Shown: positions 1 to 63,715 of the stretch, piece after piece
Layout of the letters: each line of letters starts with the position of its first letter
How positions within the stretch are numbered: the stretch's first letter is position 1
IMG/VR virus record: IMGVR_UViG_3300031949_000032
Location: 1 to 63,715 of that record
Source of the DNA: a virus
Taxonomy: Duplodnaviria > Caudoviricetes
DNA length: 63,715 bases
Reading direction: 5' to 3' (one strand)
Position numbers and translations under genes: made by a program
Notes under the pieces: model-generated
The model's database searches: none
What the model saw: only the letters and a program-made list of their open reading frames with translations
Told to the model about the DNA's origin: nothing

Positions 1-411
1 ACCGGAAATCTCAGTTAATGCAGGAGCGGTGAAGGTTGCACCCTGACGAACGTCAACGGAACCGGAAATCTCAGTTAATGCAGGAGCGGTGAAGGTTGCA
101 CCCTCTTGAACGTAAACGGAACCGGATATCTCAGTTAATGCAGGAGCGGTGAAGGTTGCACCCTGACGAACGTAAACGGAACCGGAAATCTCAGTTAATG
201 CAGGAGCGGTGAAGGTTGCACCCTGACGAACGTAAACGGAACCGGATTTTGTTAATGCAGGAGCGGTGAAGGTTGCACCCTCTTGAACGTAAACGGAACC
301 GGATTTTGTTAATGCAGGAGCGGTGAAGGTTGCACCCTGACGAACGTAAACGGAACCGGATTTTGTTAATGCAGGAGCGGTGAAGGTTGCACCCTCTTGA
401 ACGTAAACGGA
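1..411. repeat. Coding tandem repeat, 7 units of 57 or 60 bp
   Basis: Units accgga[aatctcagt|ttttgt]taatgcaggagcggtgaaggttgcacc[ctgacg|ctcttg]aacgt[c|a]aacgga. Confidence 0.97.
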
Positions 412-501
412 ACCGGATATAACTTCACAATCTTCTAATTGTTTATTAATGTCAGTTTGATTCTGAACAGTTATTTCAATATTTTTATTTATAGTTTTCA
501 T
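1..501 (-). CDS. N-terminal part of tandem-repeat (beta-solenoid-like) protein; continues across the window junction into 62828..63715
   Basis: ATG at 501 reads MKTINKNIEITVQNQTDINKQLEDCEVISG then SVYVQEGATFTAPALTKSG-type repeats with no stop to base 1; absent from the ORF track because it runs off the end. Confidence 0.85.
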   Translation of the reverse strand, partial: MKTINKNIEITVQNQTDINKQLEDCEVISGSVYVQEGATFTAPALTKSGSVYVRQGATFTAPALTKSGSVYVQEGATFTAPALTKSGSVYVRQGATFTAPALTEISGSVYVRQGATFTAPALTEISGSVYVQEGATFTAPALTEISGSVDVRQGATFTAPALTEISG

Positions 502-514
502 ATTATTTTGTTTT

Positions 515-835
515 TTAGTCAATAACTGGAACTAATCCCGAAGGAGTAAATTCATTTTGTTTACGTAATTCGTATAACCCGTCTTTAATCGTAGCCTTTT
601 TTATTTTTCCTTTTCCGGCTCCATGTTCATTATGCAATAATGAAGTGTTTTTAGCATCTAAATAGCCAAAAATGTAATTACCATCTTTAAATGGATAAAA
701 TATTCCATTATCAAATGAATGATTATTACCATGACTACCTGTCATTAAAATTTTGGATTCACATGCCTTTAATCCGTCTGGTAGTTTATTTATTTCTACA
801 AAGGCAATTTCTCCATGTCTGTAAGCTTTTTTCAT
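515..835 (-). CDS. Small His-motif protein, usual partner of DUF6745-like proteins
   Basis: YRHGE...GSHGNNH...LLHNEH...YELRKQNEF resembles the YRQGD/GHxH/HEEH/RQREY pattern as I recall it. Confidence 0.65.
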   Translation of the reverse strand: MKKAYRHGEIAFVEINKLPDGLKACESKILMTGSHGNNHSFDNGIFYPFKDGNYIFGYLDAKNTSLLHNEHGAGKGKIKKATIKDGLYELRKQNEFTPSGLVPVID

Positions 836-11871: not shown

Positions 11872-13803
11872 TTATGCTACTCTGAGTTCAGGATCCATTG
11901 TCACTACTAATCGTACAAGTTGAGAATCCATAGGAATGAGTTGGTTTACACTTTCGGAGTTATCAGTGAAAACAGGGGCAGTTACATTGTAATGATTACA
12001 GAGTGTTTTTATAATATCCAATCCCCCATTGACTTTAGCTGCATTATTAAGGTCAGCCCAAGGAACACCATTTACTAACGTATCACAACATGGTTCTATA
12101 CCTCCATTTATGTTTTTAGAGAACATTTTAAACTGGACGTATGAGAATAGGCTATTTACAGTTTCTTCAATCCGGTCAATTTTAGCCTTTTCAAAATCAA
12201 GAATAACAAACTCTTGTTTTTCAAGATCGGCCAATTGCTGGGAAAGTTTTTTATCTTCTTCGTTAAGTTCTGTAATTCTTCGTTGAGCCTTTTCATTAAC
12301 ATCTTTAAGTGCTAATTTAGCTTTATACAAGCTTATTGAATTAATTATACCAGACTTTATCTCTTGAAGCTCCCTTGTGTCCGTAGGGGTTGGTTTTGGC
12401 TTACTTTGAATCGCAACAATTTCATCATGTATTTCTTTTAAAACAGATGTTGGTATCGGTTCAGCAATTACAACAGTATCCTGTTCTAATTTAAGACTTA
12501 GTTTAGCACTTGTTAAATCCCGATATAGTGTAGTCATTAATACCGTCTTTTCGGCAAGCTCTTCTTTCATTATTTTAATGACATTTGCATAACCTTGGCC
12601 TTGCTTTGTCATTGATTCAAGCTTTTGAAGTTTATCTGTATTGAAATGGGCTTGCATTTCAGCCTTTCTTTCTTCAATATTTTCAGATTCAAATGCTCTA
12701 TTGCAAGCTGGGCAGATAAATTCATCATCGGAGAATACTATTGCTTTTGCATTTTCTGTGTGCCAATCTGCCAAAAGTGTATTTTTCCGAACGGTATTGG
12801 TATCTATTTCTCTGGTTAAATACTCAATCCTTTCAGATGCCATTGAGTAATCGTTACCAAAATTCTTTACTTTATTTTCTAAAACAGATACCCTTGTTCT
12901 TTTATCGTTTTCTGCTTTTTGCACAGTTTGACTATGGTTAAACTCCAATTGTGACCGTTTTTGAATAAGTTCATTTATTTTTTTCTGGTCATTCAATTGT
13001 TCGTCAAGAATATTTTGAGGGATAATTGATTTATCAACTATAGCTCTATCTACATCCTTTAATTGTAGTTCAAGTCCTGAAATTTCAGCCGTTATCTGTT
13101 CATAATCCTGTTCGTCTATCATCCCCCTTTGAACTTCACTTATTCGGGTTGGAATTTTTTCAAGTTCCTCTTTAACAATTTTCTTCTTCGCTGAAATCTC
13201 ACTTTTAAACTTTTCAAAAGTTTTGCCAGGTGTTATTAAAGCCACTAATTCCATAAAAGCTGGCTTTAATTGCGAGATTTCAAAATCTGTAACATTTCCA
13301 GCAATGCGCGATAATACTTCTCTCCTTTTGTCCCATTTCAATGAATTGAAGTAAAAAGGAGATGTTATAAGTTTGAATAAATCCTCGTCAATAATTTCGT
13401 TTATGGCTGCCTGATATTCACCGGCTTGGTACGGAGCATCATTTATAAAATATAATGTTTCATGTCCGGTAAACTCTGTGGTCTCAGAACCTTTTTTCTT
13501 GGTCCATTTTTCTTTATAAACCCTACGGAAAGTTGAAGGTACACCGTCAATTTTAAGCACACCAATAACTTCATGGTCAATCTTTGGGATATGAACATTA
13601 TTTACATCAAGTGTTTTAATGTTGAAATCTTTACTACCAGTACTATCTTTCCCAAATAGCAACCACGTGAAAGCATCAAAAATTGTTGTTTTACCGAGAC
13701 CGTTTGCTCCAAAAATACTTGTGAGCCAATTAAAAACTATTGTCAGTTCTTTAATACCTTTGAAATTTATGAGTGATAAACTTTCTAATTCTACATTTTT
13801 CAT
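11872..13803 (-). CDS. SMC/Rad50-like AAA ATPase
   Basis: NFKG, GANGLGKTT, CPAC zinc hook, coiled coils, FTDNSE. Confidence 0.9.
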   Translation of the reverse strand: MKNVELESLSLINFKGIKELTIVFNWLTSIFGANGLGKTTIFDAFTWLLFGKDSTGSKDFNIKTLDVNNVHIPKIDHEVIGVLKIDGVPSTFRRVYKEKWTKKKGSETTEFTGHETLYFINDAPYQAGEYQAAINEIIDEDLFKLITSPFYFNSLKWDKRREVLSRIAGNVTDFEISQLKPAFMELVALITPGKTFEKFKSEISAKKKIVKEELEKIPTRISEVQRGMIDEQDYEQITAEISGLELQLKDVDRAIVDKSIIPQNILDEQLNDQKKINELIQKRSQLEFNHSQTVQKAENDKRTRVSVLENKVKNFGNDYSMASERIEYLTREIDTNTVRKNTLLADWHTENAKAIVFSDDEFICPACNRAFESENIEERKAEMQAHFNTDKLQKLESMTKQGQGYANVIKIMKEELAEKTVLMTTLYRDLTSAKLSLKLEQDTVVIAEPIPTSVLKEIHDEIVAIQSKPKPTPTDTRELQEIKSGIINSISLYKAKLALKDVNEKAQRRITELNEEDKKLSQQLADLEKQEFVILDFEKAKIDRIEETVNSLFSYVQFKMFSKNINGGIEPCCDTLVNGVPWADLNNAAKVNGGLDIIKTLCNHYNVTAPVFTDNSESVNQLIPMDSQLVRLVVTMDPELRVA

Positions 13804-14566: not shown

Positions 14567-15178
14567 ATGAAAGATAATGAACGAATGAATCTGTTGCTTT
14601 CTGAATTAAATGAAACAGCCAACAGTTTTGCAAAAACAATAGGGTTGCATCCTACCAATATCTACCATGTTCTGAATGGGAGGAATAAAATATCGGATAA
14701 ACTGGCTACACTTATTATAAATAAGTACGACCAAATTAATCCAGATTGGTTGACTCATGGCAAAGGAGAGATATATAACAAAATTACAACTACTATTACA
14801 CATGAGAATAAAACAATTTCGATGGCGCTGGGTGAATATGAATTTGGGGATATCTCAATTGAGCCCAATGGCGAAAAATTCATAATCCCCGGAATGAGTG
14901 AAGGATTTTTAATTAGGGTACGCGATGATTCAATGAGTCCTTTATATAATCCAGGAGATTTAGTAAGTGCCAGATTTGTTGAATTGACATCCCCTATTAT
15001 CTGGGGTAAGAATTACATAGTACTTACAAGTAATATTGGAATCATCCGTAAATTATTACCTGGTAACGAAAATGAGATTAAAATGGTATCAATTAACAGT
15101 AATTACCCTGAATTAGTTATGGACAATAAGATTATTAAGAAGTTGGCAAAAATTAGTGGAGTGGTTCATTTAGAATAG
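14567..15178 (+). CDS. cI: CI-like repressor (XRE HTH + S24 peptidase-like domain)
   Basis: N-terminal HTH with NPDWLTHGKG; VRDDSMSPLYNPGD; divergent from Cro-like gene, next to integrase. Confidence 0.9.
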   Translation: MKDNERMNLLLSELNETANSFAKTIGLHPTNIYHVLNGRNKISDKLATLIINKYDQINPDWLTHGKGEIYNKITTTITHENKTISMALGEYEFGDISIEPNGEKFIIPGMSEGFLIRVRDDSMSPLYNPGDLVSARFVELTSPIIWGKNYIVLTSNIGIIRKLLPGNENEIKMVSINSNYPELVMDNKIIKKLAKISGVVHLE

Positions 15179-16457
15179 TGTTTTGTAATTTGTCTATGAC
15201 TTTTCTATTACATTCATCAATTATTTTTAATCTCTTTTCAATGTATACATGCGTTGTCTGGTTTGATGTCTCATCATGCCCAAGACAAACTGATATTAAA
15301 CTTTCTGGTATTTCACAATCATTCCAAGCTATTGTAGCCCACGAATGACGAAACCAGTAACTAGTAATATCTTTGGCATTTGCAAACTTTAAATCTTTGC
15401 AAATGTCCTTTATATTATCGTTTAAAAACTTCATAAATTCATGGTGATCCTTATATTGATATGGTATTCTAAAGTACTTAGGTCTGTTAACCGTTCGCTC
15501 ATTTAAATTATTATCGGCAAACCGAAGCAAATACTTATCTCCTTTAAACCTATTAATTATCTCCAGTGCTTCAGGTTCTATTTTTATTGAATAAGACCTA
15601 TTATTTTTACTTTTTGTTTTGGCTCGTATATAATCCAATCTTCCATTATTAGGGGTCGTACTCCAAAACAGGTCAATAATATTGATCCCAATCAAATAAA
15701 AAATAAGCATTGCAATATCCCTGGATATAGCCAACCTCTCATTATCAGTTTCATAATTTTTAAAAGCCAGTACCTCTTGTAAGGTAAGGTTTCGCTTCTT
15801 GGTTGGGGAGCTTTTTATTTTGTATAGCTCAAATGGATTTTCAATTAGTTTTATTAGCTTCTGTTTTTTAGCAAGATAAAGTAAGTGCCTAATATTTCTC
15901 ATGTGTATAGATATTGTATTTACTGCTAAAAACTTATCCTTTCCTTTCCTATCCTTTTTTGGGCGTTTTAAAAATTGCTCATACTCAATTAAAAACTGGT
16001 AGTTTATTTGGTTAAAATCCAAAATACGGACTCCTATAAAATCAGATACACTATTAACAGTAAATTCAAACAATTCTGCGGATGATTTTTTACCAGATAA
16101 TTTTAAACTGGATATCTCTCGTTCAGAAAAACAGAAGAAATCTTCCCCGATCTCTGTAATATTTTTTAACACGCGTACCAATTGATTAATATCCATATGT
16201 TTTATCCGGTCTCCAATATTATCTATGGCAATATCTTCATATCCTTCAATAATACCTCTCAATTTTCGGCTTAATACCTTATAATTTGGGTGTTTTGTTT
16301 CAATTGTTCCTGATACGTTATCGAAAAACTTAGGATCAATATCATATTCGGTAGAAATATATCGAGTCGCACCAGCATGGGAAACGCGAATTTTTATATT
16401 ACATTTACCATCATTTTTTACTTCTAATTCCCTGATCTGTGCTTTAAAGCTTGCCAT
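15153..16457 (-). CDS. int: Tyrosine integrase (Bacteroidetes arm-binding + SAM-like type)
   Basis: N-terminal IKIRVSH arm domain; GINIIDL, YWFRHSWAT, LGH, catalytic Tyr in THVYI. Confidence 0.93.
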   Translation of the reverse strand: MASFKAQIRELEVKNDGKCNIKIRVSHAGATRYISTEYDIDPKFFDNVSGTIETKHPNYKVLSRKLRGIIEGYEDIAIDNIGDRIKHMDINQLVRVLKNITEIGEDFFCFSEREISSLKLSGKKSSAELFEFTVNSVSDFIGVRILDFNQINYQFLIEYEQFLKRPKKDRKGKDKFLAVNTISIHMRNIRHLLYLAKKQKLIKLIENPFELYKIKSSPTKKRNLTLQEVLAFKNYETDNERLAISRDIAMLIFYLIGINIIDLFWSTTPNNGRLDYIRAKTKSKNNRSYSIKIEPEALEIINRFKGDKYLLRFADNNLNERTVNRPKYFRIPYQYKDHHEFMKFLNDNIKDICKDLKFANAKDITSYWFRHSWATIAWNDCEIPESLISVCLGHDETSNQTTHVYIEKRLKIIDECNRKVIDKLQNTILNEPLH

Positions 16458-39217: not shown

Positions 39218-41194
39218 CTAAGCTGCCTGTCTTCCCATAGCCTGTTCCAACATTGCCATTGCTTTTGGGTCACCTTGCTGTGCTGCCTGTGATACTTCGG
39301 GTGGTATTCCAGATTGAGCCTGTTGTTTGGCGGCTTCTTCTTCCTGCCTTTTTAGCGATTCAAGCATAGTGTCTGCAAATGGAACATTCGAATTTTCAAG
39401 GTACATCTTAAGATTGATCCTTTCTGTATTCAAAAGGTTTGTTAATGTTTCTTCCATTGCCATCCTATAAATAGGAGTATCATTACCTGAAGATACTACA
39501 TTATCAAATGCCATATTTTTTACAGCTTCCGGGTCATAAAGTTTAGCTTCTTCTTTAAATGCCCTACCAGATATAGCCAAGTATCTTGGTTCATTGTAGA
39601 ACTGTTTAATAAGCTGAATCATTTTATAATCCCTATCCTTAATGAAGGATGCGAATGATTTCATATACCCTACATTGTTTGTAGATGCATTCTGAGCCTC
39701 CATTGCGTATCTGGATGCCGGTGTTCCGCTTCCGGCAGATTGTCCTTGTATTGCTCCCTGTACACCCGAAATATCGGTAAGGAGTTTAGAATACAATTGA
39801 ATCATTTCTTGCGCTCCAATATTTGTAGAGTTAACCGAAATTTGTTTTGGTAACTGGCCGTGAGCTTTTGGAGTATAAAAAATTACGCCATTAATTTCAG
39901 TCCATGATGCCGCGAATTCATCTGGAGACATTCCCTCCGGAACAATATCCTTTGGCACCATAAGTGTACCCTTGGCCGAAGAATTGATAATCATATCCAT
40001 AAGTATGATATATCTATTCAACTGTCTTTGAATATCAATAATATCGCTAACAAATCCCCAATTTTCACCGTCAATTAATGGGTATAAAAGAAATACATAA
40101 GGATGTTCCTGGTGTTCGTATGGAGTTTCACCTTCTTGTAAAACATATCCATTCGGAGTAAGGAATTTATAATACCAGAATTGTTCGTATACATCCTTTA
40201 ATTCAAGGAGCAATAAATCTTCTTCAGCAACTCCCTGGGATAAACCTTGGGATATTCTGTTTGCATTTATTTTATTTAATTCTGAACGTGAACGATTTGT
40301 TACAGTAATACTACCATCTGCATAATCGATAACTTCAATTCTCCATTCTCCTTTTAATTCCCACGCCTCAATAACCCGGCATTTAGTAAAATCATTAGGT
40401 ATAAGGAAATCTAAGTTATCAACTGATTCTGGTCTAAAACCGTACACTCTTGACAAATAATCAATATCCCTTACATTACCGTACCATTGGCGAATCTTTT
40501 CTTCATCTGCTTTATTTCTGGCAAAGTTTGAAATCAAATCTTTAATTGGCAGGTCGTGTATTTCTCCTATTAATCTTAAATCCCTATGCTGAATATCTGT
40601 AATATCAGAATTCATAAACATGCGCGAGATTGTTTTATTTTCAACAATTAGGTCATAACAATCACGTGTTCTATGGGGCCCAAACATAACCTTTTGAATA
40701 GGCATACCGGAAAGTAAAAATTCTACAAACGATGAAGCATCCCTTTCTTCTGTTTTATTTATTTGCTGGCCATACTGAAGAGCGTTTGTCATCATTTCGG
40801 TTGCCTTTTGCTTATCCCGGTCTCTGGACAATACAATTGTACTTGTTGGATTACCTCTATATTGCCCTTCCAGGTTCTTGACTAATTGGCGTACCTGATT
40901 TTGAACGAAAGGTATTTTACCTTGCTCTCTAATCAAATCTTCTTCTTTAATCATTTTACCCGTTTTTGGGTGCCGGATATACTCATCCCATTGACGGCCT
41001 CTATGGTAATTTCTTGCCCGTTTTCGTTCCTTCCTACTTTCTGCAAGGCTATCATAATATGAACGGCATTTCCATACCAATTCTGTATTCTCCCTGCTGA
41101 AATCTTCATGCAATCTTTTTTCTGGTACCGGTTTACTTTTAATACCCAGAGTTTGCTTATTGATCTTTTTGAAATTAATAGTTCCTTCTATCAT
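39218..41194 (-). CDS. Portal protein (P22-like)
   Basis: YHRGRQW, IPFVQNQVR, IIDIQRQLNR, DISGV...QG. Confidence 0.85.
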   Translation of the reverse strand: MIEGTINFKKINKQTLGIKSKPVPEKRLHEDFSRENTELVWKCRSYYDSLAESRKERKRARNYHRGRQWDEYIRHPKTGKMIKEEDLIREQGKIPFVQNQVRQLVKNLEGQYRGNPTSTIVLSRDRDKQKATEMMTNALQYGQQINKTEERDASSFVEFLLSGMPIQKVMFGPHRTRDCYDLIVENKTISRMFMNSDITDIQHRDLRLIGEIHDLPIKDLISNFARNKADEEKIRQWYGNVRDIDYLSRVYGFRPESVDNLDFLIPNDFTKCRVIEAWELKGEWRIEVIDYADGSITVTNRSRSELNKINANRISQGLSQGVAEEDLLLLELKDVYEQFWYYKFLTPNGYVLQEGETPYEHQEHPYVFLLYPLIDGENWGFVSDIIDIQRQLNRYIILMDMIINSSAKGTLMVPKDIVPEGMSPDEFAASWTEINGVIFYTPKAHGQLPKQISVNSTNIGAQEMIQLYSKLLTDISGVQGAIQGQSAGSGTPASRYAMEAQNASTNNVGYMKSFASFIKDRDYKMIQLIKQFYNEPRYLAISGRAFKEEAKLYDPEAVKNMAFDNVVSSGNDTPIYRMAMEETLTNLLNTERINLKMYLENSNVPFADTMLESLKRQEEEAAKQQAQSGIPPEVSQAAQQGDPKAMAMLEQAMGRQAA

Positions 41195-44100
41195 GGTTTG
41201 CTGTATTTGCTTACAATGTTTCTTTTAGTATTATTGATTATGTGTTCAATATTATCCTTTGCTAATTGTTTCTTTTTTCTTTCTTCGTAAGGCATACTTT
41301 CATCAATTATGATTGTATTTTTAATTTTATAGAGTTTGGATAATATTGATTCGGCAACTTTAACTTTATTGAACTTTGTTAAATCATTTTTTAACATCGC
41401 ATCAAGTACTTCATGGTAATTACCGGCATCCTTCTGGGCTTTATAACTATTATTATGATCTTTATACCAATTTGACAATTTACGGTATTCATCATCAACT
41501 CTACCTTTGTACTTATTTCTGTAAAATGAATTTATTATAGGAACGGTGGTAAAATCAAATCCTTCTGTAATGTCATCTATTTCTGCTTCCTTTTTAGCTT
41601 TTTCTGCTTTTGTTTCTATCATTTTACTCATAGTTGTAATAGCATCCAACACAAACGATGCAGGACCGGCTCCTAAATCTTTAGTTATATATTCTAAATC
41701 GGAAGGGTTAATATCCATAATATCCCACACTTTTTTTCCATCTTTTAAATCCATAATAGAACGTACTTTTGGATCACCACCACCCAATATAAATAAATTA
41801 TCGGTCAACGCTTTATACAATGGATTTACATTTCGTTTATGTAATTGAGAGTCCGGTATGTATTCTTTATCTTCAAATTTAGATGGCTCTCTATGTATAA
41901 GATCATTTTTATAATCTTTATTATCTACCCATACACTTATAATTGGTTCAAGTAATGTTGGAATTTTTGCTATAGAGGCAAGGTTAAAACCCTTATCATC
42001 TTTATTCCAAAAACTTGTAACATCAATAGGACTCATTGCATTCTGAAATTGGTCGATAAGATCGTATGTTGCCGTAGCCGCATCCGTTTTTTCATGCTGC
42101 AGGTCATAAACAATATTCCCAACTGCATAAAAAAACCTATGGCCTTGTGCAAGTGGTATCATTGTAAATTTATTACCAGGTGCAATAATTATATTATTAT
42201 ACCTATTATGCTTATTATGTTCTTTATAGTCCTTTTCTTTATCATCATCATCCCAAAGTAATCCATTTATCATAGACATTACATACCCTAAAGTTGCCAG
42301 ACTTAATTCAGCTATCCCAAATCTTAAAGTATGATGTTTAAACGAATGTCCATATCTCGCTCCACCCTGTACCGCTGCGTTAAAAAAACCTATTAATGAG
42401 CCAATAGCAGATGAAGCATTTCCTTTTCTATCAAAGTTTACTGATATTTCTTTTGCAATATTTATAGCTTGTACAACTGTTTTACCTTGTTCCCTTGCGG
42501 TTACATATGCCGCGAACCTGGTTAAATTTTCTGTGTATTGAGCCAAGGTATCTATATGTTCAAGTATTTTCATTGCTCCCTTATCGGCTCTGATTATTAA
42601 TTTACCAACTGCTAAGTATGGATGGGCTTTTGCATACACCTCTTGGTTTATTTTTTTAATATCTTTATCAAGGTTTCCTTTTATAGTATCAATATCTTCT
42701 AAATTTGTTGTTCCTGTGCGGCCTCCACCTGCAATAAATTCTTCTTGATATTTAAATAAATCAGACTTCGCTTTACCTTTTTTACCTTTAACCATAAAAG
42801 CCATTATATCTGCAACATTTTTAACATATAAAACGGTTGTTTTGGTATCGTTTTCAATCCACGTATTCATTATGGCCCCCTGTAAGTCTCGCGTTAAATT
42901 CTTTATTATCCAAGCAGGGTTTTTTGCTGTACGTAATGCGGATATACCTCTTGTAATCTTACTAACATTAAACCATTTCCATGACATCCATTTTGGAATA
43001 TCTATAAGTTCAGCCTTTTTTATTTCATTGGCCAATTTAGGGTCGCGGGTAACAACAATAAATTTCTCACCGTTCATCATTACCTCTAATTCATGTTGAT
43101 CGGCATTTTGTTTCGGGTTTCTTATCTCATGGTCGATACGAATTTTAGACTTTATTTCACGACCTTCACCGGTCAATTCAAGTGCAGAACCCAATAGTTT
43201 TAAATCCATGTTACCATCTTCGGTATATCCTTTAATTTCATAGATATTATCACCTTCTTTAATTACTTCAGTCCATGTGCCATCATCATTGCTAATGTAT
43301 AATGTTTTTTTCTGGTAGAATAAATCAGTACGATCAGGATTATCCCTTGTTAATCTTAAAGCGTGTTGTTTAACTCTATTTTTTTCACCCCATTTAATAA
43401 CAGACTGAGCCATCTGGTAAAGATTAGAGATTGGATCATCGGCAATAGACCTACGGCCTTTCATTTGCACCGTACCATTAAAGCTACCTTTGCCAGATTC
43501 TTTGTTATAATCCCATTCAATGTCTTCAGAGGTTGGCTCCCATCCGCGCAATGGAACATAATATTTCCATCCGCGATCCTTATTTGTATTATAGGTTTCT
43601 TGGTCAAACTTCCCATAAGTAACCCACATTTTTTGAATGTCATCGGCAGCTTTGCCCCATTTATTCCAAAATGAATCAATAACAGATTCCGGTATATCGC
43701 TTTCAAAATTCATAATGATAGTTTCGGCCTGAATATCCGTCATACCCGCGAACACTTTATCAGCTACTTCCTCTGTCTTTTTTTCTACAAGAAGTTTTAT
43801 TTCGTCCAGTTTTTCCTGAAAACCTTCTGGATCATTTACCTGTTCATCCGGGTTTAGCTTTGACATTAACCCTTGCTTATAAGCTTCAACTTCCTCAGCC
43901 CTTTTAGTTGCATTACGTTCGGGTGCATGTTTGGCTATCATGTAACGGGGAATACTATTCCTATCGAGTTTACTTACTTCATTGTTGTAAGTATCCTCAT
44001 CAATTTCACCTTTCTTGAATTTGGCTTCAAGCTCTACGTAAGCTTTCACATCTCTACTCTTACCTAACCTTACAAATTGTGCAATATGTTCTAGCGCTGG

Positions 44101-47100
44101 CCTAAATGAATCCTTTACATATTTTTCCCATCTGGCTTGTCCTTTACTGTTTTTTTGGTTATCTGCAAGGTACACATCGGATGAGTCTTTAATTTTCAAA
44201 CCAAATAAACTTTGTAGTTTTTTCCATGCAAACATATTATCCTGTCCAATTTCACGCTTAATGTCGCCTATTCCATCAAGCATTTTAGGCGGTTTACGAT
44301 CCAATAATTCAGGGATTAGTTCTCCTAATCTATCAAATGGGTCTGTTGGGTCAACTGGTGGTTCAGGAGGTGTATTTTTAAATAGGATGTTAGGGTTATT
44401 AATATCAAATGTTCCAATATTTCCGGTAGCAGATTTTAACTGTGTAGGGTCAAATACTGCAATATTGGTCATTCCTTGTTCGGTTACATAGAAAGAATCG
44501 TAACCAAGTTCTTTAATCTTGTCAATAACTGGTTGTTTCTCTATACCCCAAGGATCACCGTTACTAATACGTTCCTTAATTTTGTCTCGAACTCCAAGGG
44601 TATTTAGTAAGTCATTAAGTTGGGTTTTATTTCTATAATCGAAAGGGTTTTCTGCTTTTACAAAAACAGGCATTAAAGAACCTGAAGTTCCTTTTTCTGC
44701 ATCTGTTTTCATAAATCCACCTTGTACCCATTTTGGATCGGGGCCGGCAAATATTAATCCTTTACTGTTTGGCTTAAACGTGTCGAAATCATCATTAGTA
44801 GCATGGTACATACGAATAGGTTGACCATTATCATCAACGGCCTTACTTTCACCAAACCACTGCTTAAACTCAGGTGTTAATCCTCTTCCTGTGTCTGAAC
44901 CGGATATGTTTCCCGCATCTTTCTGAGAGCTTCCATCATGTTCATCCCTTCCAGACAATAGTCGTCCATCAGGTCTATTTCCTTTTTGGTAAGATGGAAA
45001 GTGAAATGTATCCCCGTTTTCTCGTCCACTATTCCCACTATTTGTTTCCGATCTTGATTCATTGTTAAATGTTTTATATGCAAATGTATTAATAATTTTA
45101 TCTATTTCTTCCGAAGAGAAAACTTCTTTATCCAAAATAGTAGATAGTTCGGATTCAGAATATATGTCATTTACATTTATTCTGCCGTCTTTAAGGTTTT
45201 TCTCAGCTTTATATGCCATGTATTCATTAGCCTGTAATAAATCACTCCGTGTATCATAAAATGACGGTATAACGCTGAATATTTCACCTTTTACATTATT
45301 GTAAATGTTTGATAAGAATTTAATTTTAATATTTGTAGGTAATTTAGCTACAATAGCATGTACATTTTCGTGTAATAAAATTTGGTCGGCAATTTCTTTA
45401 GAATGGGCATTTACAGAAAGTATATATATTTGTCCTACATCAGGTAAATAACAACCAGAAAAATCCTTATTTTCTTTAAGTGAATCAATATAATCTTGGC
45501 TTGTACCACCCAATGACTTATAATGGTCAATTACTTCATTTATTCCTTTACATACCTTAACGGGTGTGTCTCCTTTATTGATCGAATCTACATAGTCCTG
45601 TACTTCTTTTACACTATTTAGCCATTGTGTAGTATTGGGGTTTATGCCAGATTTAAACATAGGTTGTCCTTCAATTACACTGTCCTTCATAGATGGTGTA
45701 ATTTCAATAGTATGAACTGGGGTATTGTTTGATAATTCAACATCAGACACTTTGCCACCCCATTTTTTAGTATATTTATTTACCCAAGCTGGAAGTATTT
45801 GGTCATAGAAACCTTTCATACCTTCGCCACCAACTTTAAGTCCATCTCCTGTTATGTTTTTGTAGCCTGTTTTTTGCGCATCACCTTCGTTATTAAGTAT
45901 TTTATTAGCAATATCCTTTCCTACTGTATTCTCAATTTCTGACAGTGAAGCACTATCGTTTTCCCATAAAGTATCAGTATTTTCTTTATTATAAACTCCT
46001 ATGTCATAGGTATTATTATCGTTTTGCTTATAAGATATTCTTCCTACATGCTTACTCAAATTATACCTTTCAGCCTGAGTTTCACCGGTAGTCCAAGTAA
46101 CAACATCGAACCCGTTTTCGGCAGCATAACGTAAAGCCCATTTCATTCCAAGTCCTGCCCATTGGTCAGTTTTTTTGAAGGGCATGTCGGGAACACCATT
46201 AACTCCTTTTATAAGCAATTGTTCTTTATTATTTTCTTCTTCATTCATATCGTAACTCCATGAATGCCCATACTTTTCTTTCATCTCTTCACGAAAAGAC
46301 ACTAAAGCTTTACCGTCATTAGTTTTAAAACCTTCCTTTTTACCCTTCTGCGCCCAATCGCTCTGAACTTCTTCTAAATTCAGCGCACGTTTACCGTCCT
46401 TGGTAGTAAATTCATTTATGCGGATATGAACAGCAATGTTTAGTTCATCGAAGTGGGAGGAATTAAATTGTCCTTGAATCGAAAGTTCTGTTGTTGGGTT
46501 AATTGTACTTTTTGCACTTTCAATATCAGATTCACTTGGGAATGCACCGGATAATTGTTTATCATTAATAAAAAATGCCCATAGTCCTTTATTATTCTGC
46601 TTCCAAATTGGCTTTTTAGTTTCTTTTGCAGGTAATGTCAACAATACCTCTTTATAATTTTCTCCTCCGGGTATGGTGTATTGGGAATATTTAGTATTTC
46701 CTTCTTCTTTTTTGCCAACTTGGTAATTATCTGAGTCCGTTTCCATGTTTTGCTTAGCTTCGTATACATCATCGATAGCGTCAAAACCAGATTCTTCTTT
46801 TAAATCTTTCTCCTTTTCTTCTATACTTTCTCTTATAGAATTTTCCTTTTCATAAGGATATTCATTCATAGAAAGTTCGTTCCATAAAAATTCAATCTTA
46901 TTAAATCTTCTTTCGTATTCTTTTAATTGATCATATTTTTGTTGAGCTTCGTCCGTAAATTCGTTTAGTACATAATTTTCATTAACTATACTTTCTTTCA
47001 CGATCTCCTTAACTTCCACCTTATTCTCATCAATCCAATTCTGAATTTCTTCCTTGGTCAATGATTTTTTACCATTGGCGAATGAATCCCAATCCATCCA

Positions 47101-50100
47101 GTCAAGTTCATCTTGTTTTGCTCCGTTTTTAAGAAGCATAGCTTTGAATTGTTCAGGAGTTCCTTTTTCTTGTTGTATTGAGTTTAAAGCACGTTCTGAG
47201 TTGGAATAGTAGGTGTCTGATTTGCGGAAACGAATATCTTCATCTGGCTTACTAAAGTATTTATCACCTATCCTTTTTGCTTCCCTTACTGCATTTTCAG
47301 TATTTTGTCTCTGCCAAGCTTTATTAAAAGGTGACCACTTCCATCCACTATGTTTTAATTCATATATAATTTCAGGTGTTGGTTTTTCATCGAAAAATAA
47401 ACGTAACCGTTCGTCATCTGTGTTGTTTTCTATTTTTAACCCATTATACTCTGGAATATTAAACTGCTTTTCAAGTTCTACTTTTTTATCAAAAGTTGTT
47501 TCAGGAAGTTTCCATATAGAGTTATTGTCGGCAAAAATTGGCTTATCTAAATTAGACTGGACTTCTCTTATGTAATCAAGTGATTTTTGAACATCTTCTT
47601 TTTGTCCGTTTCTAGCCATAGTGTTAATAAATCTTGATAATCCAGACACAAATAATCTTCTATCGTAACCTTTTTCAGTCCCATTATCTATACCTATAAT
47701 TGTTCTTAAATCATTATCAATATTCTTTTTAATACTATTCCATTTTTCTGCATCTTTTTGCTCTTGCGGAGCAGCATTTTTAATAGCTTTAATAGCTATA
47801 CTTTCAGCTTTACCAATCCAGTCAGTAAATTCGACACTTCTTTTGTGTTCTGTATTGTTTGCTTTTTCATTTCTAGCAGTAGGAAAATTAGATGGGCCGG
47901 TTATCATTGGGGATAAAACACGAGACTTTGCACTCAGTAAAGCATTATAATGTTTAATATAACCTTCTTTATACCGTTGAACCTGTTCTGATAGAATCTT
48001 TTTTTGCTCATCGGAAGTTGCTAATTTAGTAAGTGTTTCTATTAATGAATTTACATCCTCAACATAACCTTCTTGTGCTTGCTTAGCCCTTTTCTCAGGA
48101 CTAAAACTTGTACCACGATGGGCATCGTAAGCTAAATTATAACTTATGTCTTCAAGTTTAGGGGTAATATCATCTTTAACAGGATTAAGTATGTCGTTTA
48201 ATTTTTCAATATAGCTATCAGGATTAATGTTTAACCCGGAAATATTATCAATTCCAATTTCTTTTGAATCAGTATTTTCTTTTAATGATGGCGGGATTAA
48301 TCCAGAAATTACATCATCATTAGTTAATGTAGTCTTTGAATAATAATCCTGCATGTATTTAATTTCACGATACCTTTCACCAACATCAGGATCATTCATA
48401 TCACTTTCCTGAAAACTAAATATATCCCAATATTTTTTGGGATTATTTTTTAAATCTTCAATATCTATTTTCCAGTATTCTTTTTGGTCTAAAGGTTCAT
48501 TTGGATCATTTATTTTGTCCTGTATAAACTGTATTTCGTCTAAATTTATTTGTTCTATCGTTTTCCTATCTTCGGGAATACGATCAGAAACCATATTACC
48601 GGTATCGGGAATATGGTCAATAGGTTTAGTGGTAATTAACTCATTTAGCTTTATGGTATCATCAATAGGCTTTTTAGTTTCCGATTTACTGGATAACCAT
48701 TTTTTGAAATTATCGATTGACATTTCGGTAATTGACCCCATTCCATTCCAAGCAGGTTTATAGTTTAATTGGTAAGCTATCTTAGCTTCTTTTGCATTGA
48801 TAAACCCTAACATTACCTTATGTTCGTCAAATTCACCAGTTTTTGGGTTCATTTGGTCAATAATGAATACCTTTTTAGACGAAGGATTATCTCCTATAAA
48901 TGTATCAACCTGGTCTCCATCTTTACCCTCAGTCCTTTTAAAGTATCCGTATGTGTTATTTAAAACAGATTCCCATGCTTTACCATCCTGGTCCACTCCT
49001 TTTCGGGTTGATCCTTTTGGATTTTCAATAGTAATGCCTAAACCTTGTATGGTCACATGTCCCATTTTATAATTACCCGCATCCTTCTGGGCTTCGGTTG
49101 GGTCTGTGTTTACTTTAGCTTCTTCTTCCTGAATCTTGGCCTGTATTTCTTCTGGTTTTTCTTCAGTCTTATTTAGTTCGCTTATTTCGAAGTCCTCAAC
49201 AAACGAAGCCTTGTCCATTCCCTCAATATTTATACCTGGAAAGTTTTTAGCTCCTAAATAAAAAGATTTAAGGTATGGGATAATGGCTTCTCCAAATTCT
49301 GAAATCATACCCTTGGCAAAATCAACAAACTTTCTTGCACCTGACTCGATATGAAAAGCGGCCATTTCTGTACCAATGGCGAATAATTCAGGATCAAAAC
49401 CGGAATTAAGGTTTGTTAATTTTCCCTTTAACCTGGCTTTAAGTTCCTCGTAACGTTCCTTGGATACAAGTTTATTCTCTTGACCAGATTCCTTTTTAGC
49501 TTTCTGTTTACTCTTTTCAACTTCTGCTGCCTGTTTATCGGAAAGTTTTTTTAACGTATCATTGTATTCAGATAACACATTTTCAGGTACTGGCTTTCCT
49601 TCGTCAAGTGCTTTAGCTACTGCCTGTGTATGTAATGACAAGTAAGGTTCTTTATTACCTTCAAGCTGTCCATATATCCTTTGCGCTTCTGGTTGGTTCC
49701 AGAATTCATCTCTTGTCATTTGCCAAGGTTCCTTTTGTGATTTATTAACCTTTGGTTTTTCTTCAGGTACAACTTCTTTTTCCTCGGTAAAAGAACTATT
49801 ATTAATAATTGATTCAGGTTTAACCATGTATGTAAGACCATCATCTCCCTTAATCTTAACTTTACCCCTTTCTTCTCCGATTATGGTACCTTGGTTAATA
49901 GAACCGTCAAGGAATTTAAAAGTAACTTTAGCAGGTGCAGTAGAGTCGCTTAACCCTACATTAATATCTTCTACTGCCTCCTGCGTATTTTGTGGAGCTC
50001 CAACCTTCGGGTATGCTATAATACCATGCAGAGGTTGATCTTCGTTCTCTGAGTTTGGTAGTTCTACTACTTTAACATCGAAGTTTTTAGCATTCTTCTG

Positions 50101-62726: not shown

Positions 62727-62816
62727 TGGAGATAACGGGAATCGAACCCGTACTTTCAAGTAAAATGGAAAACACCCATCCCTTTATCCGTTCCTTCGTT
62801 CTGAACGTTTATCCCC
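62727..62816 (-). ncRNA. tRNA-like RNA with G3:U70 acceptor stem and canonical T-arm
   Basis: GGGGATA/TATCTCC-A acceptor; ACGGG-TTCGATT-CCCGT T-arm; non-canonical D and anticodon regions. Confidence 0.6.
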
Positions 62817-62827
62817 TTAAATACCAT

Positions 62828-63715
62828 TTACCATTCCTCGGTAAATGTGTAGTCATGTTGTAATCCAAACGATTCCATTTTAGCTGCCTTACAACTATTT
62901 TTATTTGTTCCAATAAAATATTCCCTCCCCGTAGAAGGGCAGTGGCAATTATAAAACAAAAGAGGATCTTCAATTTTTTGAATAGTGAAACTTACTATTC
63001 GCATAGGATATCCATAACCATCATCTTTTACTTCATCTAATATTTTATAATCAGACAATTCTTTCATTTTTACCTTATCCATAAATTGGTATGCAACCCG
63101 GCGATGTTCTATATTATCAATAGCAAAAACTTCAGAAGCCTTTAGCTTATCAAATTTTATTTTCAAAAACCATTCTTTTTTAAACTCTACATCGTTTAAA
63201 TAATATTTTGATTTGCTGTTTTTAGCGATAAGCCAATCCGAAGAATGTTCGGTTATAATCCACGTATTTGCTGAAAAATTTTTCCAAAGTCGTTTTTCTA
63301 CACCTAAATTATTTTGAATTTTTATAAATCCGGAAATCTCAGTTAATGCAGGAGCGGTGAAGGTTGCACCCTCTTGAACGTCAACGGAACCGGATTTTGT
63401 TAATGCAGGAGCGGTGAAGGTTGCACCCTGACGAACGTCAACGGAACCGGATTTTGTTAATGCAGGAGCGGTGAAGGTTGCACCCTCTTGAACGTAAACG
63501 GAACCGGAAATCTCAGTTAATGCAGGAGCGGTGAAGGTTGCACCCTGACGAACGTCAACGGAACCGGAAATCTCAGTTAATGCAGGAGCGGTGAAGGTTG
63601 CACCCTCTTGAACGTAAACGGAACCGGATTTTGTTAATGCAGGAGCGGTGAAGGTTGCACCCTCTTGAACGTAAACGGAACCGGAAATCTCAGTTAATGC
63701 AGGAGCGGTGAAGGT
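62828..63715 (-). CDS. C-terminal part of repeat-solenoid protein with DUF6745-like domain
   Basis: Open frame from 63715 to the stop at 62828; repeats followed by NIEHRRVAYQFM...CHCPSTGREYF. Confidence 0.85.
   Translation of the reverse strand, partial: TFTAPALTEISGSVYVQEGATFTAPALTKSGSVYVQEGATFTAPALTEISGSVDVRQGATFTAPALTEISGSVYVQEGATFTAPALTKSGSVDVRQGATFTAPALTKSGSVDVQEGATFTAPALTEISGFIKIQNNLGVEKRLWKNFSANTWIITEHSSDWLIAKNSKSKYYLNDVEFKKEWFLKIKFDKLKASEVFAIDNIEHRRVAYQFMDKVKMKELSDYKILDEVKDDGYGYPMRIVSFTIQKIEDPLLFYNCHCPSTGREYFIGTNKNSCKAAKMESFGLQHDYTFTEEW
63329..63715. repeat. Coding tandem repeat, 6 units plus a 36-bp partial unit identical to bases 1-36
   Basis: Same unit as 1-411. Confidence 0.97.

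Follow-up and report, generated by a model that had tools for sequence, protein, structure and literature searches.

Probable recombination-driven diversification of a predicted repeat solenoid in a Caudoviricetes phage, and the constant module that it shares with DUF6745-type phage proteins

The window, that is, the whole 63,715-nt stretch of DNA analysed here, is an entire IMG/VR record (IMGVR_UViG_3300031949_000032, Caudoviricetes) with the class 'direct terminal repeats' and a CheckV completeness of 77%. Both of its ends run through a tandem array, which Tandem Repeats Finder (TRF) reports at 1–417 and 63330–63715 with a period of 57–60 and scores of 589–682. Both array halves are open in minus-strand translation, and in the list of open reading frames the minus frame is the only one that stays open across them. 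The repeat gene begins at 501 on this strand, runs off base 1, re-enters at 63715 and ends with a stop codon at 62828–62830 (Table 1). Unit parsing finds a 30-residue leader and seven full units at the low end, while the high end holds a 12-residue partial unit and six full units over 63329–63715, followed by a 166-residue non-repeat domain. We prefer the ATG at 501 over a TTG at 522 because the leaders of the related proteins P0003, P0008 and P0026 are alignable. A gene for a small His-rich protein lies directly upstream, its stop 13 nt ahead of this ATG.

Table 1 Features of the repeat gene and its upstream neighbour (positions in the window)
Feature	Position	Strand	Basis
Start codon (499-501) and 30-residue N-terminal leader/solenoid cap	412..501	-	translation; alignable leader in relatives
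Repeat units 1-7 (3 x 57 nt, then 4 x 60 nt)	1..411	-	unit parsing, TRF
Units 1-7 in protein order: YQE-K, YRQ-K, YQE-K, YRQ-EI, YRQ-EI (ATA), YQE-EI, DRQ-EI	1..411	-	
36-nt partial unit, copy of window 1-36; probable circle closure point	63680..63715	-	exact terminal overlap
Units 8-13: YQE-K, YQE-EI, DRQ-EI, YQE-K, DRQ-K, DQE-EI	63329..63679	-	unit parsing
Constant C-terminal module, 166 aa and stop	62828..63328	-	homologues, model, BFVD match
Upstream partner gene, 106-aa His-rich protein	515..835	-	phrog_27831 match, homologues, alignment, complex model

The last 36 nt of the record are identical to its first 36 nt, and this is its only exact terminal overlap. These 36 nt belong to the invariant portion of the unit, so what passes for a 'terminal repeat' is the array itself, inside which the contig broke; the partial unit is probably unit 7 seen twice. 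Joined through the overlap, the two halves, which share frame and orientation, form a single frame of 450 residues without stops. At this locus the assembler cut a single, real phage gene of about 450 codons within its tandem array; the break fell here because a short-read assembler cannot resolve an identical three-unit block such as the one that this array contains. Only 11 nt downstream of the stop codon, a tRNA-like element occupies 62727–62816 on the minus strand. It scores 28 bits with the Rfam tRNA model (gathering score 29, E 0.001) over 90 nt, ARAGORN calls no tRNA in the window, and the element could be a long-arm tRNA, a degenerate tRNA or an attachment-site remnant.

The 13 full units follow the consensus S-V-[Y/D]-V-[QE/RQ]-GATFTAPALT-[K/EI]-SG and are 57 nt (K form, n = 6) or 60 nt long (EI form, n = 7), 762 nt in all. 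They differ at three two-state patches, Y/D, QE/RQ and K/EI, in the combinations Y/QE/K (four units), Y/RQ/EI, Y/QE/EI and D/RQ/EI (two each) and Y/RQ/K, D/RQ/K and D/QE/EI (one each). Synonymous differences are few: an ACA/ACT alternation at a threonine codon that is strictly linked to K/EI, one ATT to ATA and, in the last unit, one GGT to GGA. The parsing of the units thus recovers what the original prediction had described, namely 13 full units of this consensus spanning both ends, all of 57 or 60 bp and forming a single in-frame repeat gene, seven of the eight possible combinations with D/QE/K absent, and almost no synonymous drift. Seven distinct combinations are also the commonest outcome when the patches are assorted at random (10,806 of 20,000 shuffles), so the count of seven out of eight is in itself no excess. 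For each pair of patches all four allele pairs are present and no association is seen (Fisher p 0.27, 0.56 and 0.59, with little power at 13 units). The longest exact repeat in the array measures 190 nt at an offset of 177 and represents a three-unit duplication, units 9–11 (63446–63622) being identical to units 6–8. Substitutions at the patches are T/G and AAG/GTC, together with an indel, and are not adenine-specific. The GC fraction is 0.51 in the array, 0.335 in the genome and 0.297 in the C-terminal domain.

An AlphaFold2 model of 295 residues, built from the single sequence, predicts a coil to which every unit contributes three short strands, namely V-[Y/D]-V, T-F-T, and either T-K or E-I. 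Its block-mean pLDDT is 87–96 over the first 100 residues and 63–80 over the last repeat units, the C-terminal half of the model being of low confidence. From this layout, Y/D would be the outward residue of the first strand, QE/RQ the turn after it and K/EI the strand before it; the T-F-T side of the coil is invariant. Whether the variable residues line one face, a check suggested with the original prediction, can be judged at the level of the secondary-structure string from which the placement was read, rather than of coordinates: the patches are predicted to lie on and around the first strand of the coil. Of the description as an LRR- or L-domain-like solenoid, the coil fold is retained in the model but membership of these families is not. 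Recep_L_domain (PF01030) gives the window protein E 0.15 and 12.6 bits against a cut-off of 21.8, and this over the leader only; no LRR model (LRR_1, LRR_4 or LRR_8) is listed for it in the Pfam search, and its coils have three strands where an LRR unit has one, together with an LxxLxLxxN motif. Pfam and PHROGs searches with both protein halves yielded nothing credible. The sole score above cut-off in these searches, 29.7 bits for Hyd_WA, was treated as repeat noise because it sums 14-residue matches to a 30-position repeat model. Foldseek with the 295-residue model found no match at E ≤ 0.001 and only weak ones, mostly to tail spikes and other beta-helices, with a best E of 0.025; a search of the ESM Atlas gave no usable match.

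The C-terminal module that follows the array has a large family. A word-indexed search found 114 homologues, and an exhaustive one 122 cluster representatives at E ≤ 0.001. The model of the module reaches a pLDDT of 94.9. With it, Foldseek found no match in the PDB at E ≤ 0.001; in BFVD the only match at this threshold is a fragment from an uncultured phage (E 5.8e-4), and a weaker one is A0A7T8, a DUF6745 protein of Microcystis phage LMM01 (E 1.7e-3, probability 1.00, TMq 0.49). Neither half of the window protein matches the DUF6745 model PF20530 at E ≤ 1, and a six-frame search of the record with this model returned no match, as did the controls. The proteins P0031, P0033 and P0053, homologous to the module with E 1e-42 to 1e-49, do carry PF20530. 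Among 76 aligned members of the family, Pfam finds 27 with DUF6745, 13 with Recep_L_domain, three with LRR_4, two each with LRR_8, LRR_1 and Decapeptide, and one with Pentapeptide_3, and eight of the 76 match phrog_31813. These sequence relationships make the module a homologue of the C-terminal portion found in DUF6745-type phage proteins.

The likeness to DUF6745 proteins (PF20530, phrog_31813), such as A0A7T8, goes beyond the homologous module, since these too have the same His-rich gene (phrog_27831) directly upstream, and in them as in the kin of the window protein the repeat tract is the only fast-changing part. The window protein differs in that it lacks their N-terminal and middle parts and falls below the Pfam model. 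The variable element also differs, being an N-terminal, putative beta-solenoid of 19–20-residue units in the window and a tract of four-residue repeats in DUF6745. This internal tetrapeptide tract, absent from the window protein, is present in the related loci L006, L008, L010–L012, L018 and others. We found no paper naming 'DUF6745' or 'PF20530', and broader literature searches also returned nothing on the family. Two IMG/VR loci, L035 (3031–3372) and L036 (3031–3369), have three and two in-frame TGA codons, each aligned with a Gly in relatives. Under translation table 25 (TGA = Gly), both encode full-length DUF6745-type proteins with very long tetrapeptide tracts, and the phages probably use the Gracilibacteria/Absconditabacteria code.

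The repeats that accompany the constant module are varied and comprise L-domain-like solenoids, LRRs, pentapeptides and tetrapeptide tracts; in a few cases the module is genuinely fused to LRRs. On each scaffold few positions toggle, as in SG[S/Y]V[Y/D]V[R/G]ENA... and GG[Y/D]L[S/Y]I[N/Y]S..., in the short motifs [D/A]SV[R/G/W], DAV[R/D/G] and SA[G/W/R], and in the unit of an LRR-type relative, G[E/G][S/T]F[Y/S]C[H/D/G][S/N/Y]NQLTSL. The closest surroundings of the window array itself are empty: the exact 29-nt invariant core of its unit has no match in the viral contig and metagenome contig collections, and none of 50,697 deposited phage records matched the C-terminal module in a tblastn search. 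With no close relative of the array in the collections searched, hypervariability is shown by other family members only.

Does the variation in these members follow a pattern? A solenoid set of 116 units from 21 members was assembled from proteins with at least four units, with the two halves of the window merged and the duplicates P0001 and P0002 removed; four of the 21 members belong to one 90% cluster. In the resulting unit profile, within-protein variation is seen at position 2 of G-x-V-x-V-x in 15 of the 21 members, at position 4 in 16 and at position 6 in 19, against 0–4 members for any other unit position. As far as the sequences tell, variation in these 21 members falls on alternate residues of one strand. 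Tyr, Asp, Arg and Ser dominate the variable columns, Gln, Asn and His being less frequent; such residues are typical of binding surfaces. At the DNA level we compared the codons of eight arrays from different phages, taking units between successive anchors, by which the window contributes 11 of its 13 units. Summed over the arrays, 39 codon columns vary in amino acid and seven are synonymous-only, and in each of the eight 13–17 of 20–23 codon columns are identical in DNA. The window array taken alone has four amino-acid-variable and two synonymous-only columns over the 11 units covered, which is not decisive.

Near-identical phages show where change is concentrated. The loci L018 and L019, from two records, align over 6,189 columns, and the repeat tract contains every one of the 19 columns that differ. 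L012 and L015 differ by two bases in the tract of the repeat gene and otherwise in a second repeat region downstream, which holds every remaining difference between near-identical phages of different records. About 2.5 kb separate this tandem-repeat region from the family gene upstream of it; it spans 5890–6198 in L012 and is also present in L014 and L015. Within protein clusters at ≥90% identity, the lengths of the members are spaced by about 20 residues. The proteins P0080, P0258, P0259, P0260, P0078, P0262 and P0264, for example, have two to five full units and 238–298 residues; these seven belong to the P0080 and P0078 clusters, and six of them have identical leaders and C-terminal parts, a single C-terminal residue setting P0260 apart. 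A comparison of arrays in related phages, which the original prediction had proposed as a check, accordingly finds arrays that differ between identical flanks, both in these clusters and in L018/L019. Many relatives were assembled from short reads, a process in which arrays may be collapsed or joined wrongly, and 14 of the 32 related loci (gathered with a 15-row alignment of the family) run off a contig end, 12 of these inside the repeats; some of the length differences may therefore reflect assembly collapse.

The constant module appears to have a companion. The upstream His-rich protein matches phrog_27831 with E 8.9e-5, and homologues occur in 18 of the 32 related loci; of the 18 loci in which the gene is complete, 15 have the homologue directly upstream. 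The alignment A3 shows the invariant residues R6, H7, G8, H39, H68, H71, E95 and D106. Pfam gave nothing at E ≤ 0.1 beyond noise for this protein, and a sequence search of the PDB no relative, with a best E of 0.25. When it is modelled as a complex with the constant module, the ipSAE is 0.82, against 0.00 for the best control, at least 97% of contacts recur between runs, and the pLDDT of the partner is at least 86. The ipSAE mark is reached by 58 of 80 solved complexes and by 2 of 110 mismatched pairs, counts that are only rough with our own alignments. The predicted interface involves R6, H7, G8, H68, E70, H71 and E95 of the partner and N72, E74 and E165 of the module, and it is here that conserved residues of both proteins meet. 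The model thus predicts that the partner docks on the constant C-terminal module.

The genomic neighbourhood of the pair contains genes for an NTP pyrophosphohydrolase, a DNA methyltransferase, a DnaC-like loader and a primosomal protein, and the virion genes (tail spike, head, terminase, portal) lie at about 20.8–41.2 kb. The repeat gene is located in the replication/early region and not in the tail module, and its product has no signal peptide. Between the portal gene and a 342-codon frame, a single open frame of 3,769 codons extends over 41191–52500 on the minus strand. The same strand encodes an integrase and an SbcC-like protein or recombinase at 15153–16457 and 11872–13803. The phage is probably temperate with recombination functions of its own, for which the array could be a substrate. 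Its low GC content and an A-rich translation start would point to a host among the Bacteroidota.

The reading best supported by these observations is that recombination shuffles the array while selection favours a varied surface. In its full form it combines recombination-shuffled patches under selection, a constant module with a predicted bound partner, a recognising arm, an intracellular target and a role in conflict, and as such we consider it reasonably probable. Part of the same evidence suits a neutral minisatellite, that is, a recent expansion under concerted evolution in which the patches, leftovers of two ancestral unit types, were re-dealt by unequal crossing-over and play no part in selection or recognition. 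Seven combinations are the modal result of random assortment, the three-unit exact duplication is what plain repeat dynamics would leave behind, and the window array offers just its four variable against two synonymous-only columns. What makes this account unlikely comes from the family: the same strand positions vary in 15–19 of 21 members whose DNA is unrelated, amino-acid-variable columns outnumber synonymous-only ones 39 to 7 in the pooled arrays, and the variable residues are drawn mostly from Tyr, Asp, Arg and Ser, less from Gln, Asn and His. Another concern is that the short-read assembler itself set unit number and mosaic order, the real array being shorter, longer or reordered. The contig begins and ends within the array with no more than 36 nt in common, the CheckV completeness is 77%, contig ends within the array recur in the 12 related loci, and with units 6–8 equal to 9–11 the copy number of the block is unreadable from short reads. 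Read depth was taken from the only public run in which the flank was found, a soil metagenome and probably the source sample, in the form of k=31 contigs (Logan unitigs), which drop rare variants and give no unit order. Accordingly, the variant bases, alternative joins and loose ends that were looked for in them, of which there were none, have no bearing on heterogeneity. There the flank contig of 62,971 nt has a depth of 37.1, and the repeat unitigs have depths of 229.2, 229.4, 235.9, 100, 130 and 52.5; for the circle closed through the overlap, the depth ratios compare with the expected copies as 6.18 to 6, 6.18 to 6, 6.36 to 6, 2.70 to 3, 3.50 to 3 and 1.42 to 2. These depths fit 13 units and not the 16 units that an extra copy of the three-unit block would give, and for unit number they speak against an assembly artefact. 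Further, the halves share frame and orientation and join into one open frame, and by inspection of the unit order the junction from unit 8 to unit 9 (YQE-K then YQE-EI) is unique in the array, so that read support for it calls for at least two copies of the block. We therefore regard an assembly origin of the mosaic as quite unlikely.

Explanations that place the array in other contexts fare less well. Beta-helices are common in tail spikes, the weak Foldseek matches of the solenoid model (best E 0.025) are mostly tail spikes and other beta-helices, and weak PHROG and Pfam hints point to fibre proteins (E 0.016–0.19), all of which would suit a virion receptor-binding protein whose solenoid forms a tail fibre or spike tip varied for host range. 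This is nevertheless very improbable for a gene among replication and early genes, far from those for tail spike, head, terminase and portal, whose product has no fold match at E ≤ 0.001, no significant match to a tail family and no recognisable virion-attachment domain, and whose constant module is accompanied by a small His-rich protein, its modelled partner, and not by tail genes. The repeats might also act as DNA, as replication-origin iterons inside a gene whose DNA identity reflects a protein that binds it; in phage lambda the origin iterons are embedded in gene O. The array adjoins the genes for the DnaC-like loader and the primosomal protein, its scaffold is identical in DNA, and its GC fraction stands out from that of the genome. 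The arrays of relatives, however, differ in DNA and in period (12 to 69 nt) while always remaining in frame with the same module, and a DNA site leaves unexplained why variation affects the first and second codon positions of exposed residues, which renders this view extremely improbable. Sharply localised variation on an otherwise identical background finally recalls targeted mutagenesis, either of the diversity-generating-retroelement (DGR) type or through another enzyme that hypermutates the patches. Its chance appears next to negligible: a search for RVT_1 that was positive in 3 of 14 control genomes found no match in the record, the array matches only itself in the genome with no template repeat outside the gene, and the changes (T/G, AAG/GTC and an indel) are not at adenines. 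Variation without a reverse transcriptase, as originally supposed, is in line with these results.

In the preferred reading, recombination-driven shuffling under selection, the product would consist of a short cap, a 13-coil beta-solenoid and the constant C-terminal module, with the patches placed by the model on and around the first strand of each coil. The array would evolve through homologous exchange between misaligned units, be it by unequal crossing-over, gene conversion or slippage, and such exchange would keep the scaffold codons identical, duplicate blocks of units and re-deal the patches. The unlinked patches, the 190-nt exact repeat and the arrays of relatives that differ between identical flanks are what one would expect from the recombination of units that had been proposed for this gene. 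Selection would then maintain variety at the exposed positions. While the constant module is predicted to pair with the His-rich protein encoded directly upstream, the variable solenoid may serve as the free, target-recognising arm of a two-protein unit. Given the early/replication location and the lack of a signal peptide, the target most likely lies inside the infected cell. The most likely use might be in phage–host or phage–phage conflict, a suggestion made solely by analogy with the non-homologous gene 54 product of mycobacteriophage Tweety.

This analogy is worth spelling out. In Tweety gp54, according to the available part of its description, third codon positions are invariant and variation occurs at first and second positions, which the authors read as selection for variation (PMC2884959); the codon pattern of the eight arrays here is the same. 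The accessible text also describes gp54, together with Che8 gp57 and PMC gp51, as having constant ends around a repeat tract and a GC-rich core (PMC2884959), and the window array is likewise GC-rich (0.51 versus 0.335). Tweety gp54 mutants that escape the Phrann gp29/gp30 prophage defence change their repeat number, as stated in the available part of a second report (PMC9262239). As a homologue gp54 was rejected, with an hhalign probability of 0.14% against the family profile A1 and no Pfam family of its own, and its units are tetrapeptides thought to be unstructured, whereas those of the window would be coils of a solenoid.

Localised hypervariation on a repeat scaffold marks reprogrammable recognition in TALEs, variable lymphocyte receptors (VLRs) and DGR targets. 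In lamprey VLRs the recognition surface is formed from alternate strand residues of stacked repeats, and synthetic binder libraries based on Tyr, Ser and Asp work with a small residue alphabet. The window family resembles both in its variation on alternate strand residues and in an alphabet rich in Tyr, Asp, Ser and Arg, a likeness that is functional only; unlike in VLRs, no somatic assembly machinery or cassette library is seen in the window. With the DGR target Mtd of Bordetella phage BPP-1 and with VR2 of bbp36 in phage BMP-1 it has in common that a phage gene contains a sharply localised variable region, and it lacks the DGR traits of reverse transcriptase, template repeat and adenine-specific changes. 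The number of VR2 repeats differs between BMP-1 isolates, according to the available part of the same Tweety report (PMC2884959). The nearest published kind is that of the repeat proteins represented by TALEs and an LRR locus of Flavobacterium psychrophilum, for which the accessible portion of Altae-Tran et al. 2020 describes localised hypervariation together with repeat rearrangement (PMC10392669). There the authors call such families exceptionally rare, and the word 'phage' appears once in the main text as far as it is available (PMC10392669). Those proteins are cellular and secreted or exposed on the cell surface, whereas the window protein is phage-encoded and cytoplasmic, with a different constant module and a predicted dedicated partner.

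A constant phage module joined to at least four unrelated repeat scaffolds, each with a like style of variation and a conserved partner gene, points to a general strategy, as yet unstudied, by which phages diversify a surface for intracellular binding with no need of a reverse transcriptase. Carried further, this leads to a modular, reprogrammable form of phage recognition, in which the constant module docks the partner while interchangeable hypervariable scaffolds have their exposed residues re-dealt at high frequency by recombination within the gene, to supply the phage population with a standing library of intracellular binders. We put this forward tentatively, as a possibility that is more doubtful than credible at present. 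If it were true, the partner might be metal-binding, the binders would track variable proteins of the host or of rival phages, and the system would be a recombination-driven functional analogue of VLRs or TALEs that needs no reverse transcriptase.

The arrays also have a practical side. Contig breaks inside them were observed at the ends of the window and in L005, L007, L009, L015–L017, L020, L022, L024–L026 and L028. Arrays of this family repeatedly interrupt contigs and make circularity calls doubtful, and in the present record the array alone produced the 'direct terminal repeat' label, which bears on how the circularity and completeness of viral contigs are judged.
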